From Candidatus Hodarchaeota archaeon (GTDB taxonomy: Archaea > Asgardarchaeota > Heimdallarchaeia > Hodarchaeales > Hodarchaeaceae), in the NCBI GenBank assembly GCA_029856365.1, contig JAHQWW010000008.1, positions 9,579 to 73,578 of the forward strand: 64,000 nt of DNA, given 5' to 3'. The notes beneath the pieces were generated by a model. It was not told where the DNA came from. It did no database searches and saw nothing but the letters and a program-made list of their open reading frames with translations. A program made the position numbers and the translations under genes. Position 1 is the stretch's first letter. Every line of letters starts with the position of its first letter. Shown in pieces: positions 23,295 through 64,000 of this stretch.

Positions 23295-24941
23295 ATGAAA
23301 ACTTTAGACAAGGTTACAAGATGGGGAATAGGATCTAAACCAGTCCATGTTAGATTTACTAATGCACTCAAAGAATTCATTTTTGACATGTTAGGGATGG
23401 ATTTACAAACAAAAAAGAAAATATATCCACAAAAACGTTCTTTAGATGAGTATTTCACCGAACCTCAACTTCCTGAAAAATTTATCATGAAATTGACACA
23501 AGAGCTTACTTCAGATCAAATTTCTAGTGATTTTCAAGACAGAGTCAAGAATTCAATTGGAAAATCATATCTAGAAATAATTCAAGCACGAATAGCTGAT
23601 ATTCCCTCTCTAGTTGAATTAGTAGTCTATCCCCGGACACATAATGAAGTTATCAAAGTTGTAAAAATCGCCAATGAATATAAAATCCCTATATCTCCTG
23701 TTGGAGGAGGAACTTCGATGACATTGGGAATACAAGCTCCCTCAGGTTCAATTGCTGTAAATCTATGTCAAATGAATCAAGTATTATTGATTAATAAAGA
23801 TTCTCTATATATTACAACTCAAGTTGGTATATTAGGTCCAGAACTCGAAAGAATTTTAAATCACGAGAATCTAACTCTCGGTCACTTTCCTCAATCCTTC
23901 GTATATAGCTCTGTGGGAGGATGGGTTGTTACACGAGGAGCAGGTCAGAATTCAACCCTTTATGGAAAGATCGAAGACATGATTATGGGATTTAAATTTG
24001 TAACAGGTATGGGAGAAACCTTAACCACTCGTAAAGCTCCTGCAAGAGCTACTGGTCCCGATTTAAATCAGATTATTGCTGGATCTGAAGGCGCTTTCGG
24101 TATACTTACTGAGATTACATTAAGAGTCTCAAAGTTACCTCAAAAAAGAAAAATGGCAAGTTTTTTCTTTCATAATTTTAAGGAAGGAATAACAGCTTTT
24201 AAGAATTTACTTCAGGATGGATTCACTCCTGCTATTATACGTCTGTATAATACTGAAGAGACTTTCTCTAGCTTACGTAGTTCAGCATTAATGAAAGACC
24301 CTCCTAAGGAGTCATTTCTCATTCGTACAGCATTAAAGTATGTCGAATTAAGAGGTTATTCTGAAAAAGCTCGATGTTTGGCTGTTGTGGTTTTTGAAGG
24401 GAATTCTGATTTAGTAAAAGTAACTCGAAAAAAGACAATAGCTTATGCAAAGCAGGCTGGGGGAATTTCTCTTGGCTCAATTCCCACAAAATCATGGATA
24501 AAGTCTCGTTATGAATCTCCTTTTCTTCGTGATCCTATTATTGATCATGGAATACTTATAGAAACATTTGAAACAAGCACAACTTGGGAGAATATTGTAC
24601 CTTTGTACAACGCTGTACAAAAGGTTCTTAAACCCGAGTGTCCCGTTCTCTGGGTACATGCGAGTCATTTTTATAAAAATGGGGCAAATTTATACTTCCA
24701 TCTTTTTGCTCCTCAAGAATTAGGTAATGAAGTTGAACAATTTCTTCGGATTAAAAAGAAAATTATTGATACATTCCTTGAGAATGGAGGAACAGTAAGT
24801 CATCATCATGGTGTTGGTAGAACTTTCTCTCAATGGCTTTCTCAAGAAATCGGAGTTGAAGGAATTAGAATATTGCAAGATATCAAGAAGAGTCTTGATC
24901 CAAATGGAATAATGAACCCTGGAGTCTTCGGGTTACAATAA
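23295..24941 (+). CDS. FAD-linked oxidoreductase, alkyl-DHAP synthase (AGPS)-like
   Basis: PVGGGTS, TLGHFPQSF, GGWVVTRGAGQNSTLYGKIED, GSEGAFG, SHHHGVG, LDPNGIMNPG. Confidence 0.8.
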   Translation: MKTLDKVTRWGIGSKPVHVRFTNALKEFIFDMLGMDLQTKKKIYPQKRSLDEYFTEPQLPEKFIMKLTQELTSDQISSDFQDRVKNSIGKSYLEIIQARIADIPSLVELVVYPRTHNEVIKVVKIANEYKIPISPVGGGTSMTLGIQAPSGSIAVNLCQMNQVLLINKDSLYITTQVGILGPELERILNHENLTLGHFPQSFVYSSVGGWVVTRGAGQNSTLYGKIEDMIMGFKFVTGMGETLTTRKAPARATGPDLNQIIAGSEGAFGILTEITLRVSKLPQKRKMASFFFHNFKEGITAFKNLLQDGFTPAIIRLYNTEETFSSLRSSALMKDPPKESFLIRTALKYVELRGYSEKARCLAVVVFEGNSDLVKVTRKKTIAYAKQAGGISLGSIPTKSWIKSRYESPFLRDPIIDHGILIETFETSTTWENIVPLYNAVQKVLKPECPVLWVHASHFYKNGANLYFHLFAPQELGNEVEQFLRIKKKIIDTFLENGGTVSHHHGVGRTFSQWLSQEIGVEGIRILQDIKKSLDPNGIMNPGVFGLQ

Positions 24942-24950
24942 TTCCCCTCC

Positions 24951-26597
24951 TCAAGGTTTCCAAACTAAACTTTCTTTATATTTCGCGATTTCATCCCTCT
25001 TTTTATCAGAGGACCATTCAAGAATTTCAGCCATACGATTTACAATACTTTCAACACAATCTAAGCCCTGTTCATCAGAAAGCTGAAGCTGGGTTCGCCT
25101 GAACATGATATCATTTAATGTCACTGCTTTCTCATGCTTTATATAATAATCAATTTCAGCAAGAATGTATGGGCGATTCTTTGAAATTCTTTCCCGCAAT
25201 AGAGGATTTAATTCCACCTGTTCACATACTTGGGGATAATTTTTTCCATATCTAAGTAAATGCCTAGCTATGTCCTTAGAGAACTGATACCGAATTGTTA
25301 AATCTTCCATCGCAATGGTAGCCCAATTATCCCAATGTTTTCGTTTTATTGAGGCCCAACCATAAAGTGGAATCTTATCTGTCTGACATTTTCCCTTCTT
25401 ACCCAGAAGTTCTACCAATTGATCTACTAGTTCCTTCGCCATCGAACGAAAAGTAGTAAATTTTCCACCTGCAATAGCTAGAATATTTGGTTTTATTATA
25501 AAAATCTCGTGCTTTCGGGAAACATCTGATTCTGATTTCGCGTTAGGTGACATAACTAAGGGACGTACCCCTGAATAGGCACTAATAATGTCCTCTTTCC
25601 GCAAAATACCTGGAAAAAGAAAATTTGTGGCTTCAATCAAATATTCGATATCCTCTGTATTTACAGGAACATAATCATAATCTTCATCATAATCAGTATC
25701 AGTTGTTCCTATTAAATTATATTTTCCAAATGGTAATATGAAAAATATTCGTCCATCCATTATTGGTAGACCTAGAGCAAAGTCTTCATGGCAAAATTGT
25801 TTTGTAATAATGTGTACCCCTTTTGTTGGCCGAACACGAGGAGTTATAGTTGGATCTATGGACTTAACAACTCTTTCAGTCCAATGACCACAAGCAAGAA
25901 CAATAGAACGAGCTTTAATCTCAAATTTATTATTCTTCAATGTGTCTAAAGCTTGTACTTTTTCAATAACCCTCTTATTGTTCTCCTTTTCGAATGAAAT
26001 TGCTTTACAATAATTAAGTACTACTGCTCCGTACTGCTCTGCAGAGAGAATAACATCCAAAGTTAATCTTGCATCATCCATTTGACCATCTCCCCACAGC
26101 GCTACACCTTGAAAATTTTCTTCTCTCAATGGTGAGGGAAGTAGCGATCGTGCTTTCTCAGGAGTTAACATTTTATGAAATGTATGGTTTTTAAAACTTG
26201 CAAAAAAATCATACAACCAAATAGCTATTCTTATTCTCGATTTAGGATATTTTGTGTCAGAATACATTGGAAGTAAAAATTTTATAGGGTAGGTAAGATG
26301 TGGAGCCATTTCTAACAATTTTTTTCTTTCAACTGAACCTTCTCGTACTAATCGAAATTCTCTTTGACCAAGATACCGTATACCCGCATGTACGATCTTT
26401 GATGACCCGCTGCTCGTTCCAAAACCAAAATCATTTTTTTCTATTAAAGCAACCGAGTAACCCCGCAAAACAGCATCACGTGCAATACCTGCTCCCGTTA
26501 TTCCTCCCCCAATTACGAGTATATCAAACTCTTTGGCCTTCAATTTTTCAATTGTCTGTTCTCGATAATTTAGAAGGTCAATTTCTATACTATCCAT
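24951..26597 (-). CDS. glpD: FAD-dependent glycerol-3-phosphate dehydrogenase
   Basis: IGGGITGAG, GTSSGSSKIVHAGIRYL, DDARL, GTTDT, SGVRPL, GGKFTTFR. Confidence 0.9.
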   Translation of the reverse strand: MDSIEIDLLNYREQTIEKLKAKEFDILVIGGGITGAGIARDAVLRGYSVALIEKNDFGFGTSSGSSKIVHAGIRYLGQREFRLVREGSVERKKLLEMAPHLTYPIKFLLPMYSDTKYPKSRIRIAIWLYDFFASFKNHTFHKMLTPEKARSLLPSPLREENFQGVALWGDGQMDDARLTLDVILSAEQYGAVVLNYCKAISFEKENNKRVIEKVQALDTLKNNKFEIKARSIVLACGHWTERVVKSIDPTITPRVRPTKGVHIITKQFCHEDFALGLPIMDGRIFFILPFGKYNLIGTTDTDYDEDYDYVPVNTEDIEYLIEATNFLFPGILRKEDIISAYSGVRPLVMSPNAKSESDVSRKHEIFIIKPNILAIAGGKFTTFRSMAKELVDQLVELLGKKGKCQTDKIPLYGWASIKRKHWDNWATIAMEDLTIRYQFSKDIARHLLRYGKNYPQVCEQVELNPLLRERISKNRPYILAEIDYYIKHEKAVTLNDIMFRRTQLQLSDEQGLDCVESIVNRMAEILEWSSDKKRDEIAKYKESLVWKP

Positions 26598-26615
26598 TTG
26601 AACTACCTTATTAAA

Positions 26616-27359
26616 TCAGATTTGAAAGAATTCCCGGGCATTTAAAGTTGTAACTTCATCAACCTCTTCAAATGTACTCTCTTTTAATGTTGCGATTTCC
26701 TCAATAGCATATCTCACGTTTGCGGGCTCATTCTTTTTACCTGGAATTGGACTAAGAAATGGTGTGTCAGTCTCAACAACAATGTATTCTAAGGGGATAT
26801 TTTGAGCAATTCTACGGTGTATTTTTCGATTTCGTACAGCAGTAGGGATTGAGATGAACCAACAAAGGTCAATTATTTTCTTTGCTTCTTCTAGGTTACC
26901 TGCAAAACAATGCATAAGAACTGGTACATCAGCATTATTTTCCAGAATCTCCAAGCATTCTTTTTCAGCTTTTCGTGAATGAATTACAAGCGGTTTTTGT
27001 CGTTCATTAGCCAATTGAATAAACTTGATAAAGACTTCTTGTTGTTTTTTACGCCAATAAGAATCCTTTATCCAGTGATAATCCAAACCAACTTCCCCAA
27101 TAGCTACCAATGAGGGGTAATCCCGAATTTTTTCATAAGCCTCCAGAAAATCTATTTTTTGTATATAGGATGCTGAAAAACCTAATGTTGTGTACACAAA
27201 GTGAGAGTTTTTCTTTTCGATATATTTAGCAAATTCAATATGTCGTGGTTCAATCGCTGAATTCACTACTGCTTCAAGTCCTGCCAAACGGGCATTTTCT
27301 ATAATTTTCTCGATGTCATTAACAAAATCTGGTAAAATGTGAGCATGAGAATCAATCAT
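26616..27359 (-). CDS. tatD: TatD-family DNase
   Basis: DSHAH, AIGEVGLDY, IHSR, HCF, ETDTPF. Confidence 0.92.
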   Translation of the reverse strand: MIDSHAHILPDFVNDIEKIIENARLAGLEAVVNSAIEPRHIEFAKYIEKKNSHFVYTTLGFSASYIQKIDFLEAYEKIRDYPSLVAIGEVGLDYHWIKDSYWRKKQQEVFIKFIQLANERQKPLVIHSRKAEKECLEILENNADVPVLMHCFAGNLEEAKKIIDLCWFISIPTAVRNRKIHRRIAQNIPLEYIVVETDTPFLSPIPGKKNEPANVRYAIEEIATLKESTFEEVDEVTTLNAREFFQI

Positions 27360-27507
27360 ATGTAGTTACCAACTAAATCAAGATTATAACACATCAATTT
27401 GCAAGTTATTCATTTAATTTTTTTTCCTACTCTGGATTACTTAACAACCTTTTTTTTGGTACTCTAAATGGGTAAGTATTACTTCCTCATCGTGATTTGG
27501 AGTTGTT

Positions 27508-28695
27508 TTGATGAAAATTATTGATTTAGTCCATCAAAATGAAGAATTTCGGAAAGATAATCTGAATATGATTGTATCTGAAAATATACTGAGCCCTCAG
27601 GTGAAACAAGCTTTATCCCTCCAGCACTCCCGATATCATGCTTCCTTTTACGGAGGAACAGAAGTTTTCCAAAAAATATATTCCCAAACCCAAGAATTGG
27701 CCAACAATATTTTCCAATGCAGTCATTCAATAATTTCCCCCTTATCAGGGAATATGGCCGTTTTAGCCGTTATCTTGGCTTTAACAAAACCTGATGATAA
27801 AATTGCTATTTTACCTCTATCATCTGGAGGATATCCGATTAATCTCGAATTTTTTGGTCGGAAAAGAGTAGATATCCCTTTCAGTTTTGAAAAATATAAT
27901 ATTGACTCATCTCCAACACTTAACATACTTTCCCGAGAAAAACCAATACTTGTGTTTTTGGGATCCTCATTATTTCTTTTTCCCCATCCTGTTAAAGCAA
28001 TTGCTGATACTGTACATAATTATGGAGGAACTGTAGCATATGATGGGTCACATGTTTTAGGTCTTATCGCAGGTAAACAGTTTCAGGATCCTCTTGTCGA
28101 AGGAGCTGATTTACTTCTTGGTTCAACGCATAAATCGTTTCCAGGGCCTCAAGGAGGAATCATTCTATCAAATGAGCTTCACATTGAAAAATTAGAGGAA
28201 GTTATTGGTACAAATCCTCTCAGTGGTATTGTGTTAGTTGATAACATTCATAATTCACGTGTCGGTGCATTGGGAGTTGCACTCGAAGAGTTTCTAGAAT
28301 ACGGGAGAGAGTATGCCCACCAAGTAATTAAAAACTCCAAAGTTCTTGCGAATAGTTTAGATGCAAACAACATATCTCTTCAAGGTAAAGAAAAAGGATT
28401 TACACAGTCTCACCAAGTATTAATGAAGATACGAGATTTTGATGAAGGAGCAAAATTAAGAAATCTCTTGATGGATTATCAAATTGTGACAGATGCAGGC
28501 ATGCGTTTTGGAACCGCAGAGCTGACCCGTTTAGGATTTCATGAAAGAGAAATGAAAATTCTTGGTAATATTATCGGAAAAATCATTTACAGTCATCTTC
28601 AAACACAACCGCTTAAACCTTTGGAGATAGATACTATCAAGGAGGAAGTTAAAAAGCTCATTAACCTTATGAAAGAATCAAATCTTCTGGGATAA
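27508..28695 (+). CDS. Serine hydroxymethyltransferase-like PLP enzyme (divergent)
   Basis: LNMIVSEN, YDGSHVLGLIAG, GSTHKSFPGPQGG, GMRFGT. Confidence 0.8.
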   Translation: MMKIIDLVHQNEEFRKDNLNMIVSENILSPQVKQALSLQHSRYHASFYGGTEVFQKIYSQTQELANNIFQCSHSIISPLSGNMAVLAVILALTKPDDKIAILPLSSGGYPINLEFFGRKRVDIPFSFEKYNIDSSPTLNILSREKPILVFLGSSLFLFPHPVKAIADTVHNYGGTVAYDGSHVLGLIAGKQFQDPLVEGADLLLGSTHKSFPGPQGGIILSNELHIEKLEEVIGTNPLSGIVLVDNIHNSRVGALGVALEEFLEYGREYAHQVIKNSKVLANSLDANNISLQGKEKGFTQSHQVLMKIRDFDEGAKLRNLLMDYQIVTDAGMRFGTAELTRLGFHEREMKILGNIIGKIIYSHLQTQPLKPLEIDTIKEEVKKLINLMKESNLLG

Positions 28696-28799
28696 AAACT
28701 CAAAAACTGTATTTCATTGTGGCAACATCAAAGAATAAAATCTTGACACTTCTCCAAACTGAATTTATTAACAGTAAATTCTCATGTGTGGCTATAAAA

Positions 28800-29810
28800 A
28801 TGGAAGAAGCAGAATTTCGTGAACTTATCCAGCAATACGCTATGCAGGTACGCTTAGAGCAGGGGGAGGCAAGCTTAACGTCTGTTTTGAAACTAGTAAT
28901 TACAGAAAATCCACAATTAAAGAATCAAGTTCGTTCATCTGTATCTATTGTGAAAGAAGAAATTGCCAAGATCAATGAGATGGCAGAAGATGACCTGGGA
29001 GATGTTACTGCTGAAATTGAAGCTGATGAATCCTCTGAATACGAGATGCTTGAGAATCTTGTAATACAAAAATTCACAGAAGACGAAAAATTAAAAGCCC
29101 AGATCAAAGCTTTAATCATCTACGGATCTTATGCCAAACGTTTACATGTTGTTGGTGAGAGTGATATTAATTTTGTAGTTATTTTAAGTTCTGATTACTC
29201 CCAAACCGAGACGGAAGAAGCCATTGAAAAGATTGGTCAAATTGCGGAAGAAATCGTCACACCTGAAGTAGCTCATATCTTTGATCTGATGATCTTGAAA
29301 GAAGATGATCTCACTCAACTAGAAAAATTTGGGCCTGATTTCAGTTTTATTCATGCATTATATGCAAAAGAAGGAGACGTCAAACTAGGCACAAACGTGT
29401 TCAATTCTTTAGATATCTCAGAGGAACAAGTTCATGAAGCAGCAAAATTACTAATTAGTGACGCAATTGTACAGTACGATGAAATTATTAATACTGCAAA
29501 AGAAGAGGGATTACCTGATGATGAACTAGAATATCTTGTTAGCGCCTCGATTATTGATATTGCTTTTGCCCTATGTTGTTACAAAGTAGGTTTAAAAGCA
29601 GTAACGATGGACCTTGTCAAACCTGATATCCATGAAGAAATCATTGAGGTTTGGGGGGAAAGAGGATTGTTTTCAGATTATTATGATATGCTGCAACAAG
29701 CTCATGCTTTTAAACTTGGAATAAAGCTTCCAAACTCCCAAGATTTTCTACAAAAAAGCATTGACTTCATTAAAGAAGTGATTAAACACACTGGTCTAAA
29801 GCAAGAATAA
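28800..29810 (+). CDS. Nucleotidyltransferase-domain protein with GluRS-like N-terminal domain and helical C-terminus (ORF track start 28719)
   Basis: IIYGSYAK...SDINFVV Pol-beta NTase motif; N-terminus resembles the archaeal GluRS extension. Confidence 0.65.
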   Translation: MEEAEFRELIQQYAMQVRLEQGEASLTSVLKLVITENPQLKNQVRSSVSIVKEEIAKINEMAEDDLGDVTAEIEADESSEYEMLENLVIQKFTEDEKLKAQIKALIIYGSYAKRLHVVGESDINFVVILSSDYSQTETEEAIEKIGQIAEEIVTPEVAHIFDLMILKEDDLTQLEKFGPDFSFIHALYAKEGDVKLGTNVFNSLDISEEQVHEAAKLLISDAIVQYDEIINTAKEEGLPDDELEYLVSASIIDIAFALCCYKVGLKAVTMDLVKPDIHEEIIEVWGERGLFSDYYDMLQQAHAFKLGIKLPNSQDFLQKSIDFIKEVIKHTGLKQE

Positions 29811-29827
29811 CCCTGAATGTTTATCAG

Positions 29828-30415
29828 CTATAATATAAATTCCTTGAGGTACTTTTCTAAAAAAGAAAATTGTTCTTCATACTGCTGCAGTTGTTGAAGA
29901 GCATGCATTTTAAATCCTTGGAATTGGTTCTTATCAAGCCACCGTTTTTTTCTATATTCGTTTGCTTGGTGAATCAGATCAATAAAATCTGATACTCTTG
30001 CTATATGATACTCTTCACTCTGCTGATCATTTAATATCCTTTCAAATGATTCTTTTAATGGGAGGGGAACCTTACCTAAGATGTTGTGAATCGCTCCCTC
30101 CTGCACTTTCTGCTGAAATTGTGCCAAGTGTTCTTTGTTGTATACAACATTATTAAAGCTTTTATCCATATCAAGACACTCTGATTCTGAAAGATCATGA
30201 ACTAAGCCGATTAGTACGGCTTTCTCAATATCTAACGGATGTTTTCTTTTTGCCACACGAAAGGAATTCTCCAGAACACACAGGATGTAAGTGAGAAATG
30301 CAACAGACCACGAATGATCTGCAAGGGATTCAATTGAACTAAAAGGTACACCAGCCCTTACCCACCCCTGTCTCCGTAATCTTTTCATCAAAATTATGTT
30401 TTCATATAGTTTCAA
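29828..30415 (-). CDS. HD-domain phosphohydrolase (YfbR/HDDC2-like)
   Basis: KRLRRQGW, ESLADHSW, VHDLSE, D..D. Confidence 0.88.
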   Translation of the reverse strand: MKLYENIILMKRLRRQGWVRAGVPFSSIESLADHSWSVAFLTYILCVLENSFRVAKRKHPLDIEKAVLIGLVHDLSESECLDMDKSFNNVVYNKEHLAQFQQKVQEGAIHNILGKVPLPLKESFERILNDQQSEEYHIARVSDFIDLIHQANEYRKKRWLDKNQFQGFKMHALQQLQQYEEQFSFLEKYLKEFIL

Positions 30416-30672
30416 AGGTTACAATCACCTAGGCTCAGTAGGAATTAGTAAAACAAAAAACGAGTTTCTTTATTATGATTTTATCAGTTTTATTATCATA
30501 TTTTCAATTATTAAGTGGCTCTAAATTATCTTTTAGCATGATTAATTAAGTGATTAGAAGAAATAATGCCCTTTCAAACAGATTAAACGAATTACCATTA
30601 GAAAGTCCTAATTCTCTTATAGCCTGTAAACATTAATTAAGGCCTTTATCCCAGTACTAATCGGAATCAATA

Positions 30673-30903
30673 ATGACGAAAAAAATACAAAGCCAAAAGA
30701 AGAATAATGACCCAACCATTGATGGTGATTCCTCCGAAATCAATGAAAAAACGATTAGTGAAGAAAAATACAAAGCTGACATTGAAATGAGAAGAAATAG
30801 GGATTTCTCTGTGAATATTTTCTTGTATTCTTATCCAATTCCTCTCAGATGCACAAAAAACACAATCTATCTCGGAAATTTGATACTAGAAAAAAAAATA
30901 TGA
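30673..30903 (+). CDS. Hypothetical protein (doubtful)
   Basis: Isolated 76-aa ORF in a long intergenic region; no motif. Confidence 0.25.
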   Translation: MTKKIQSQKKNNDPTIDGDSSEINEKTISEEKYKADIEMRRNRDFSVNIFLYSYPIPLRCTKNTIYLGNLILEKKI

Positions 30904-31141
30904 TCATTACCAATCCGAATTGTTAAATCACGTCAAGGGTATTGACCGACATTCTCAATCCACTACTCTGTGACACTAATAGGTGAAATGTTTAACTAGA
31001 AATTAAGAATAGGATCAATTGACGTTAAAACAGTAATTTGAATCTATTTTTCTTATTGTGTTTTCTATAGAAGTTCTCTGAGTTCTAGGAACATCCCCCA
31101 TTAAACGACAAAAATAAGAATTATTAAAAAAAGCCTACTCA

Positions 31142-31432
31142 TCAAGCTTTGACATAAACTTTTAAACGACGATTGGAGACGGCTTTTTTCAGAATTTTCT
31201 TTTCTTCCAAATCTTCTAATAGTTGTTTCGCTGCAGAAACACGAATATCTCGCTTTGCAGCTATTTCCTGAGGCGTGACAACTACTGTTTTTCTTTTAGA
31301 ATAATCCTCTTCTAATTCTTTGAGAATTTTTTCGTATTCATCACCAACCATCAAGGAACGTTCATAACTAGAATACTCGAATATTTTACCCCAACGACGT
31401 TTCTTACGAACTCTTTTTTCAGAAAGACCCAT
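31142..31432 (-). CDS. rps25e: 30S ribosomal protein S25e
   Basis: KKRRWGK, VVTPQEIA...IRVSAAKQLLEDLEEKKIL, VYV. Confidence 0.88.
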   Translation of the reverse strand: MGLSEKRVRKKRRWGKIFEYSSYERSLMVGDEYEKILKELEEDYSKRKTVVVTPQEIAAKRDIRVSAAKQLLEDLEEKKILKKAVSNRRLKVYVKA

Positions 31433-62640: not shown

Positions 62641-64000
62641 TTGCCTCGTTGGTTTGGTAGTTCTGGAATACGTGGATCGTATACTAAAATAACTCCATTT
62701 TTTAGTATGAATCTCGGAATAGCTGTTGGTAAAGTATTCCAAGCTTCCAAACCAGCATATATCGCTTCTGATATACGTTTTACTTCTGATTTACTTAAAA
62801 CATGTTTCATAAGTGGATTTTCTTATTATTCAGGAACAATGATTGACATTGGTTTATCCCCAACTCCAGTTATATCTTATATCACCTCAGTTAGGGATGA
62901 TACATTAGGAGTAATGGTTACTGCTTCCCATAATCCACCTTCAAACAATGGATTCAAATTTTTTTTAAATGGAAGGGAATGTGGAGAGGATTTTGAAGTC
63001 AAGGTGGAAGAAAGTCTCTATTATGAAAGCAAAAGGTCTTTCAGCGATAAGATATCGCCATATTCATGGAAAAATGTAGGAATCTCAAAATATGAAAATA
63101 ATAAGATATACATTGATAATTATATCAATCATTTACTCAGTAATATCAAAATAAAGAATCAAGGAAAGAAAATTATTCTAGATTGTGCTAATAATGTACC
63201 GAATCTTGTTTCTCCATATGTTCTTGAACACTTTGGTTTTGATGTAATCTCAATAAATAATACCTTAGATGCTACTTTTCCTGGACGATCTAGTGAACCA
63301 ACGTCTGAGAAACTATCTATATTAAAAGAAAGAGTGATCGAAGAAAGTGCCGACATTGGTATAGCACATGATGGCGATGGAGATCGTTTTGCTCTGATTG
63401 ACGAACAAGGTCACTTTGTAAATTCAACTACGATAATAAATTTCTTCCTTGATCATTTGAATTATTCTAATCCACATCGAAGAAAAATAGTTTTGACTAG
63501 TGATTGTACTAGCCAAGCATTCGAAATTGTGGAGAAAAATAAGGCAGAAGTAATCACTAGTCGAATTGGAAGAAATCGTGACTTTATAGACGATAATTCT
63601 ATAATATTCTTGGGGGAACCAAACAAGCTACTATTCCCTGATTTCGGTAAATGGATTGATGGATTATATCCTGTGTTGAAATTTTTCGAACTTTCAGAGT
63701 TGAACGGGGTCTCAAAGATCCTAAAACCATATGATAAACGAAAAATCCTCAGGAAAGCGTTCAATATCACAGAAAAACACAGAAAATATGTGAAAGATGT
63801 AATTAACAACCTTCCAGACTTATGGTCAAAGAAAATTTCAAGAGTATCATCTTTAGACGGTTTAAAGCTTTATTTTAATGATAAATCTTGTTTATTGATC
63901 AGATTTTCTGGAACTGAACCAAAAATTAAATTCTACATAGAATCTCATTCAGTTAAGAAAAACTGGAATATATTATCCCAATTAACAACCGAATTTGAGC
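62641..64000 (+). CDS. Phosphoglucomutase/phosphomannomutase-family protein (runs off the window end; not in the ORF track)
   Basis: TTG 62641, FGSSGIRG, TASHNP, DGDGDR, RFSGTEP; no stop before 64000. Confidence 0.9.
   Translation, partial: MPRWFGSSGIRGSYTKITPFFSMNLGIAVGKVFQASKPAYIASDIRFTSDLLKTCFISGFSYYSGTMIDIGLSPTPVISYITSVRDDTLGVMVTASHNPPSNNGFKFFLNGRECGEDFEVKVEESLYYESKRSFSDKISPYSWKNVGISKYENNKIYIDNYINHLLSNIKIKNQGKKIILDCANNVPNLVSPYVLEHFGFDVISINNTLDATFPGRSSEPTSEKLSILKERVIEESADIGIAHDGDGDRFALIDEQGHFVNSTTIINFFLDHLNYSNPHRRKIVLTSDCTSQAFEIVEKNKAEVITSRIGRNRDFIDDNSIIFLGEPNKLLFPDFGKWIDGLYPVLKFFELSELNGVSKILKPYDKRKILRKAFNITEKHRKYVKDVINNLPDLWSKKISRVSSLDGLKLYFNDKSCLLIRFSGTEPKIKFYIESHSVKKNWNILSQLTTEFE

Follow-up and report, generated by a model that had tools for sequence, protein, structure and literature searches.

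Fusion of a glutamyl-tRNA synthetase N-terminal extension to an ANT-like nucleotidyltransferase with a remodelled active site in Hodarchaeales

The fusion of domains with separate histories is readily traced in a gene carried by Candidatus Hodarchaeota archaeon, on a 64,000-nucleotide stretch of DNA (GenBank assembly GCA_029856365.1, contig JAHQWW010000008.1, positions 9,579 to 73,578 of the forward strand) that was analysed as a whole and is called the window below. The gene, at 28800..29810 of the window on the + strand (stop codon included), encodes a 336-amino acid (aa) protein, P0001, in which the N-terminal extension of a glutamyl-tRNA synthetase (GluRS) is joined to the body of an ANT-like nucleotidyltransferase (NTase). 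This fusion is real. Literature searches found no published description of it, and the preliminary description, drawn up from the sequence of the window, had likewise reported an architecture that it did not recognise. All told, the protein is an undescribed variation on the ANT-like NTase family, distinguished by a module taken from a synthetase and by its remodelled active site.

The N-terminal part of the protein, residues 1-65 (28800..28994; all parts of the gene are on the + strand), is a four-helix module which profile, BLASTP and HHalign comparisons identify as a homologue of the N-terminal extension found in archaeal GluRS and in the glutaminyl-tRNA synthetase (GlnRS) of Heimdallarchaeia. 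The NCBIfam GluRS model PRK04156 matches residues 4-77 of the fusion protein over its positions 3-77 (E 3.3e-5), and residues 1-72 of the GluRS from the same genome, itself a separate gene (L001, 581 aa), align without gaps to residues 1-72 of the fusion (BLASTP, E 9e-5). An exhaustive search of 1.84 billion proteins with a family-profile hidden Markov model (HMM) led to the N-termini of proteins 530-570 aa long (E between 2.7e-6 and 1e-3), which are class-Ic synthetases carrying the Pfam domain tRNA-synt_1c. Short matches that might have passed for a stand-alone form of the domain numbered 11, and the six that were read all turned out to be truncated GluRS N-termini. A profile built from fused proteins only, set against one built from GluRS N-termini only, gave 98.8% and E 7.4e-16 over 78 columns in HHalign. 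Since PRK04156, BLASTP, the exhaustive HMM search and HHalign all lead to GluRS N-termini, the N-domain is, on sequence grounds, homologous to the GluRS extension well beyond chance. The preliminary description had noted this pattern for residues ~1-65, and its domain reading of the rest of the protein, which named an acidic linker, a Pol-beta NTase domain (YGS...SDIN) with Asn at the second Asp and a HEPN-like bundle without RxxxxH, is borne out as well by the results given below. The class-Ic catalytic domain with its HIGH and KMSKS motifs (tRNA-synt_1c) was not found in P0001 by a Pfam scan.

The likeness between the N-domain and the archaeal GluRS extension starts at residue 1 in both and covers ~65-78 homologous residues, among which the basic residues K41, R45 and K52 are common to the fusion protein and the synthetases. 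The differences are that the module sits here on an NTase body rather than on a synthetase, and that three lysines of the synthetase sequence (in the consensus motifs IRK, KNA and GKA), which are kept in 68-95% of synthetase N-extensions, have become Gln, Gln and Glu.

The fold of the N-domain is less telling than its sequence. AlphaFold2 (AF2) models the domain alone with a predicted local distance difference test score (pLDDT) above 90 over residues 1-60, and nothing above noise emerged from fold searches with it, whether by Foldseek against the PDB (best E 4.5), in the ESM Atlas (TM at most 0.51) or VIA-wide, where the best match (Z 6.4, noise level) was to PadR-type and other small helical proteins. 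Residues 1-85 of the GluRS of M. thermautotrophicus, termed a 'YqeY domain', are disordered in the crystal PDB 3AII (PMC2978374), so this structure cannot surface in such searches. Backing for a relation to the GatB/YqeY tail was slight, although the name given to the GluRS extension in the literature implies one: HHalign against 24 Asgard GatB/GatE tails gave only E 0.2 and 0.012, the Pfam family GatB_Yqey (PF02637) matched faintly in 2 of 36 N-domains (best E 0.021), and YqeY (8xje) came 50th against the N-domain model (Z 4.3, noise level). The profile match to GluRS-N stands regardless. YqeY on Deinococcus GlnRS and the GatB tail are reportedly appended modules that raise tRNA affinity in other systems. 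They resemble the present case as small helical, synthetase-associated modules reused on a different catalytic scaffold; they differ from it in being confined to aminoacyl-tRNA synthesis, the recipient here being an NTase-fold protein.

There is some indication of which synthetase supplied the domain. The donor was evidently the extension of a class-Ic synthetase, most likely of GluRS type, with GluRS weakly favoured over GlnRS by sequence comparison. A GlnRS donor was tried and set aside, the mean identity being 23% for GlnRS and 28% for GluRS, and a weak sister grouping (0.72) in the N-domain tree linking the domain with a GluRS of the same order. GlnRS in the sister Heimdall families f3 and f7 is ~655-668 aa long and carries a ~90-aa N-extension homologous to that of GluRS (HHalign E 7e-24); in the comparison of these proteins (L071-L077, L080-L082) with L002:1438-3153 (G000:C142), the GlnRS of the window's genus (571-594 aa) starts at the DFIRKII motif and has no N-extension. 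Within the genus, GlnRS was matched in only three of the seven genomes sampled, at E <= 1e-120. The genome of the window itself has both a GatE-type protein (G000:C91:19308-19730, GatB_Yqey domain, in a 667-aa frame) and a GlnRS (G000:C142:28492-30204), and therefore both routes to Gln-tRNA-Gln may be encoded.

Synthetase N-extensions turned up in three further settings. A match at G010:C85:17657-17851 falls inside an open frame of 1227 aa, which could be a fused or read-through synthetase; the genome, 0.9 Mb in size, belongs to another Asgard family. In P0145 (293 aa, from an ENA contig of 2436 bases) the N-extension leads into the C-terminal half of a class I/II aminotransferase, and in P0142 (238 aa) into a short GluRS fragment and a hydantoinase-B fragment; assembly chimeras or broken genes seem likelier here than additional real fusions.

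The body of the fusion protein begins with a Pol-beta-type NTase domain (residues 79-200, 29034..29399), to which Pfam and NCBIfam models and the ANT(9)/AadA fold match all point, and ends with a helical domain (residues 201-336, 29400..29807) that is predicted from its fold to be HEPN-like and is placed as in ANT(9) and AadA. With Pfam NTP_transf_2 (PF01909), the score of 23.4 bits lies above the cut-off of 21. The NCBIfam model ANT_9 (NF012212) matches residues 95-185 only (E 1.6e-8), with 34.1 bits against a cut-off of 340, and MntA reaches 15.4 bits against 60. In the AF2 model (pLDDT 82.5), which served for all fold comparisons of the body, the predicted structure is matched by 6sxj_A, an ANT(9), with Z 14.7 and a root-mean-square deviation of 3.6 over 215 aligned residues (model residues 79-334, VIA), and by 7uy4, an AadA, with Z 13.6; Foldseek also returned 6sxj (E 1.9e-4). 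The resemblance of the modelled C-terminal domain to HEPN structures (2hsb, Z 10.6 over residues 211-335; 1wol, Z 9.2; 3o10, Z 8.9) is to be read with the fold tool's own caution that helical bundles reach high scores by chance. No Rx4-6H motif was found in residues 201-336, where the sole Arg is R287 and the next His is H302. Matches to the AMPylases DrrA and GlnE (fold Z 8.6 and 7.4) are at noise level, PADLOC gave only weak matches to generic NTase models (E 3.5e-6), and a feature search of the ESM Atlas gave generic NTP_transf_2 clusters only.

Like ANT(9) and AadA (6sxj, 7uy4, 5g4a), the fusion protein thus has a Pol-beta NTase domain packed on a C-terminal HEPN-like domain, and it has in common with them the GS motif, the first carboxylate and the third. 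It differs from them in sequence (~16% identity), in the Asn at the second carboxylate, and in the added synthetase-derived N-domain and acidic linker. Moreover, the fusion gene is chromosomal, occurs lineage-wide and keeps its synteny, unlike a resistance determinant.

The active site has been altered in a consistent way. A residue table of 43 family members, 18 of them fused and 25 lacking the N-domain (N-less), puts the nucleotide-binding hG[GS] motif at G109-S110 (29124..29129), with the glycine in 43 of 43 proteins and the serine in 42. At D122-I-N124 (29163..29171), where SDIN aligns to the canonical SDID, the first metal carboxylate is kept and the second is Asn, so that the fusion protein lacks the [DE]-h-[DE] metal pair of the Pol-beta superfamily (PF01909/PF18765). 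This Asn is found in all 18 fused proteins; Asp occupies the position in 18 of the 25 N-less relatives, and the D-D-D triad is likewise retained in 18 of 25. On strand beta-3 (H159...D162, 29274..29285), a histidine three residues before the third carboxylate marks the fused clade, being present in 17 of 18 fused proteins and in none of the 25 N-less ones. D162 is invariant in the genus and is replaced by Asn in two of eight divergent fused members, and in four of these eight a further carboxylate is gone (N-N-D in two, D-N-N in two). Positions 274 and 305 (K274 and K305 here) hold a basic residue, Lys or Arg, in most family members.

Two predictions follow from this pattern. Retention of the GS motif, D122, D162 and the basic positions 274 and 305 suggests that the cleft still binds a nucleoside triphosphate (NTP). 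Asn is universal in the fused clade and divergent lineages have lost further carboxylates, which makes ordinary two-metal transfer doubtful and suggests that classical nucleotidyl transfer is weak, altered or lost.

The distribution of the protein was followed through 300 Asgard genomes. The full-length fused form occurs in 19 of 20 genomes of the window's genus and in both genomes sampled from a second family within the order (n=2, one of the two loci being truncated where its contig ends); among the matches listed elsewhere in the 300 genomes there was no further full-length fused form. Matches from outside the order are either bodies without the N-domain, in the same class and in one genome of another class, or synthetase N-termini. 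As far as these sequences go, the fused protein is confined to the order of the window, Hodarchaeales (homologues are so labelled at NCBI). Five further families of the class (f3-f7) have the N-less form, and most genomes of the genus carry it as a second copy alongside the fused gene; in the window's own genome, the paralogue L008:1447-2271 (G000:C131:38328-39068) has an intact D-I-D...D triad. The fusion protein itself is single copy.

Fused proteins form a single clade both in the tree of the body alone (support 1.0) and in that of the N-domain alone (0.90), and therefore go back to one fusion event. This clade, as its placement indicates, arose by duplication of an N-less paralogue widespread in Heimdallarchaeia, and the fusion coincides with the remodelling of the active site, in which Asp became Asn124 and His159 was gained. 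The divergent fused members, at ~30% identity, are considered orthologues because their neighbourhood is recognisably the same. Compared with the fused clade, the N-less paralogues have the same body (~28% identity) and represent its source family; they lack the N-domain, have Ser or Thr at the position of His159, are less acidic and are never adjacent to the HD gene described below. Identity among the fusion proteins across the genus is 57-92%, against 44-82% for that HD neighbour, which argues that the fusion protein is under strong constraint in the genus. The neighbours of the N-less paralogue in the window's own genome are a ZIP-like transporter and a protein of 171 aa that belongs to no known family, and in the sister genus g7 N-less orthologues lie between a P-type ATPase and a KaiC-like ATPase; these ATPase neighbours, seen in one genus only, gave no functional hint.

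The two halves of the protein are joined by an acidic linker that is predicted to be flexible (residues 66-78, 28995..29033). Residues 63-80 have a net charge of -9, and pLDDT falls below 50 at residues 68-78. Acidity is not limited to the linker: the whole protein has a net charge of -38, or -11.3 per 100 aa, which makes it the most acidic of the window's 38 open reading frames (ORFs) that reach 200 aa, whose median is -1.5. The GluRS of the same genome has a net charge of +1.

Downstream of the fusion gene, and facing it, lies a gene for an HD-domain protein of 195 aa, P0002 (29828..30415, - strand). The 17-bp spacer between the convergent stop codons (29811..29827) is as the preliminary description gave it. 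P0002 scores 65.3 bits against a cut-off of 25.9 with PF12917 (E 7.6e-18) and has an intact H...HDxxE...D metal motif, both of which it shares with the YfbR/HDDC2 5'-deoxynucleotidases. It differs from them in reaching only 45 bits against a cut-off of 122 with the NCBIfam equivalog PRK03826, and is therefore placed in the family as a YfbR-like 5'-nucleotidase, short of orthology to E. coli YfbR. Matches to the HD gene, which is single copy, came from 60 of 150 Asgard genomes and extend to families in which no fused gene turned up.

The adjacency of the two genes was found, in convergent orientation, in 20 of 20 loci of the genus, and it belongs to a longer syntenic block. The order in the window at 23295-31432 is an AGPS-like FAD oxidase, a GlpD-like dehydrogenase, TatD, serine hydroxymethyltransferase (SHMT), the fusion gene, the HD gene and ribosomal protein S25e, and it is kept in the three genus loci read to 6 kb (L004-L006), except that in L004 a PALP enzyme replaces SHMT. 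Outside the genus the picture is mixed. The HD gene still adjoins the fusion gene in the divergent lineage L009 (~30% identity); in L010 and L011 it is 2 kb off, behind an RsmB-like gene; and in L031 it was not detected in the ~1.1 kb downstream of the fusion gene, where an E1-like gene follows. The gene that takes the usual HD place in L010 and L011 (7104-8495 in each) is an RsmB/F-type RNA m5C methyltransferase, convergent to the fusion gene. An HD gene was found beside none of nine N-less paralogues. Conservation of the adjacency thus holds throughout the genus and in L009, and fails or was not detected in the two other divergent lineages (L010/L011 and L031). YfbR-type monoesterases are not known to be a kind of HD enzyme that strips nucleotidyl groups from macromolecules. 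The neighbour is best regarded, from its sequence and distribution, as a housekeeping YfbR-type 5'-nucleotidase whose functional link to the fusion gene is not supported, and the adjacency is probably inherited synteny rather than an eraser partnership.

What the fusion protein does can be addressed only tentatively. The reading towards which we lean, while rating it at somewhat under an even chance, is that the protein is a nucleotide-binding module with weak or no catalysis, which its N-domain directs to the ligand that the GluRS/GlnRS extension binds. The body would then be a sensor-like or slow-acting device, brought by the tethered N-domain to that ligand, most plausibly tRNA-Glu/Gln, and the outcome would be a lineage-specific control of Glu/Gln-tRNA metabolism. 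The protein may act on tRNA or the synthetase machinery, and the origin of the N-domain in a tRNA synthetase, its retention of K41, R45 and K52 and the tRNA binding ascribed to YqeY and GatB-tail modules are consistent with tRNA as the target. A predicted complex of the N-domain with the N-extension of the genome's own GluRS scored 0.00, in a run made without controls, and was counted neither way. The more specific proposal that the synthetase-derived module delivers the remodelled NTase-fold protein to tRNA-Glu/Gln or to GluRS, as a new lineage-specific regulator or modifier of Glu/Gln-tRNA, we regard as having perhaps a modest minority of the odds in its favour.

Several observations weigh against a nucleotide-binding module that hardly catalyses and is aimed at tRNA. 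D122, N124, D162 and the entire loop from the GS motif to D122 are invariant within the genus, and Asn can ligate Mg2+, so real catalysis may still occur. The extreme acidity of the protein, together with the three lost N-domain lysines, would argue against tRNA as the ligand, although the retained K41, R45 and K52 speak to the contrary. Finally, persistence of the HD adjacency in L009 at ~30% identity exceeds what trivial synteny would lead one to expect. If catalysis persists, Asn124 and His159 might take part in it, in an unconventional NTase that needs no HD protein and has tRNA-Glu/Gln, free or aminoacylated, as its substrate. Such an enzyme, which we think unlikely, would explain the invariant site and loop and the gain and conservation of H159 near D162, and would fit with the tRNA affinity that YqeY and GatB-tail modules are said to confer elsewhere; it sits poorly with the four of eight divergent members that are down to one carboxylate, with the extreme acidity and with the loss of N-domain lysines. 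The same acidity is easier to accommodate if the protein is an ANT-type enzyme for a small polycationic metabolite (polyamine-like or aminoglycoside-like), the N-domain being a regulatory or structural appendage, as a strongly acidic surface is said to be typical of polycation-binding enzymes such as ANTs. The best structural matches, ANT(9), AadA and ANT(4'), extend over both domains, and ANT_9 is matched at E 1.6e-8. Its score of 34 bits against 340, the degenerate triad, a synthetase-derived domain left without a reason and a housekeeping-like conservation unlike that of a resistance gene nevertheless render this enzyme rather improbable. Acidity might also serve to bind a protein that is basic (GluRS, a ribosomal protein or some other RNA-binding protein, for instance), in which case the fusion would be a protein-directed AMPylase or an adaptor whose N-domain pairs with the homologous extension of GluRS, much as glutathione S-transferase (GST)-like domains do in eukaryotic synthetase complexes. 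The analogy to synthetase-complex assembly and the fold resemblance to DrrA and GlnE lend themselves to this reading, but the latter scores lie inside the noise range stated for the tool and the former is an analogy, and we give a protein partner of this sort an equally small share of belief.

Two further explanations draw on the company of domains or genes. A fused MNT-HEPN-type toxin-antitoxin or defence module would account for the pairing of NTase and HEPN-like domains and for the weak PADLOC matches to NTase models, but Rx4-6H is missing, MntA falls far below its cut-off, the arrangement matches that of monomeric ANT(9)/AadA, and the gene is single copy, near-universal in its lineage and stable in synteny, unlike patchy defence genes; it scarcely merits consideration. 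The preliminary description had instead proposed a writer/eraser pair, in which tRNA or the synthetase machinery receives a nucleotide from an active NTase and loses it again through the adjacent HD hydrolase. The synthetase origin of the N-domain, the NTase fold with its GS motif and the adjacency in the genus and in one divergent lineage are all in line with that proposal. Unlike the NTase and HD parts of GlnD-type systems, which share one polypeptide or operon, the two genes are separate and convergent, which means that they are not co-transcribed, the catalytic triad is degenerate, and adjacency is lost in L010 and L011 and was not detected within ~1.1 kb in L031. The link between them is also weak because the HD gene is a single-copy, YfbR-type gene widespread beyond the fused one, because the whole block from FAD oxidase to S25e is syntenic in the genus, and because none of the nine N-less paralogues has an HD gene beside it. 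We consequently hold the pair to be very improbable, and return to the nucleotide-binding module aimed by its N-domain as the reading to be carried forward.

Characteristic of the eukaryotic translation machinery are synthetase-appended domains, which also recur on other proteins. The order of the window, which we take to be the archaeal order closest to eukaryotes, offers a case of the same kind of domain reuse in which the donor, the recipient (an N-less NTase paralogue) and the single origin are identifiable. Were delivery to tRNA-Glu/Gln or GluRS to prove true, the fusion would be an early example of this eukaryote-typical reuse. The N-domain on a different scaffold would also provide a second, independent handle on the ligand of the archaeal GluRS N-extension, and the simultaneous change of Asp to Asn and gain of His would make a clean case of an NTase fold turned into a sensor or to new chemistry. 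If, on the other hand, the protein is a plain pseudo-enzyme with no tRNA link, it is a minor curiosity of a single lineage.

The limits of the fusion gene are set mainly by its homologues. The in-frame ORF spans 28719-29810 (+), and ATG 28800, which yields the 336-aa protein, is the likely start because ~75 homologues, 332-341 aa in length, begin with MEE or MDE at the matching position. GTG 28719 is an in-frame upstream alternative that receives no backing from the homologues. A TATA-like AT-rich stretch is found ~30 nt upstream of 28800. No gene for tRNA-Glu or tRNA-Gln lies near the locus, the sole tRNA call in the window being at 63897-63992 (-). There ARAGORN reports a tRNA of 96 nt whose type it leaves undetermined and whose anticodon, oddly, has two bases; it may be an intron-containing archaeal tRNA at the window edge.

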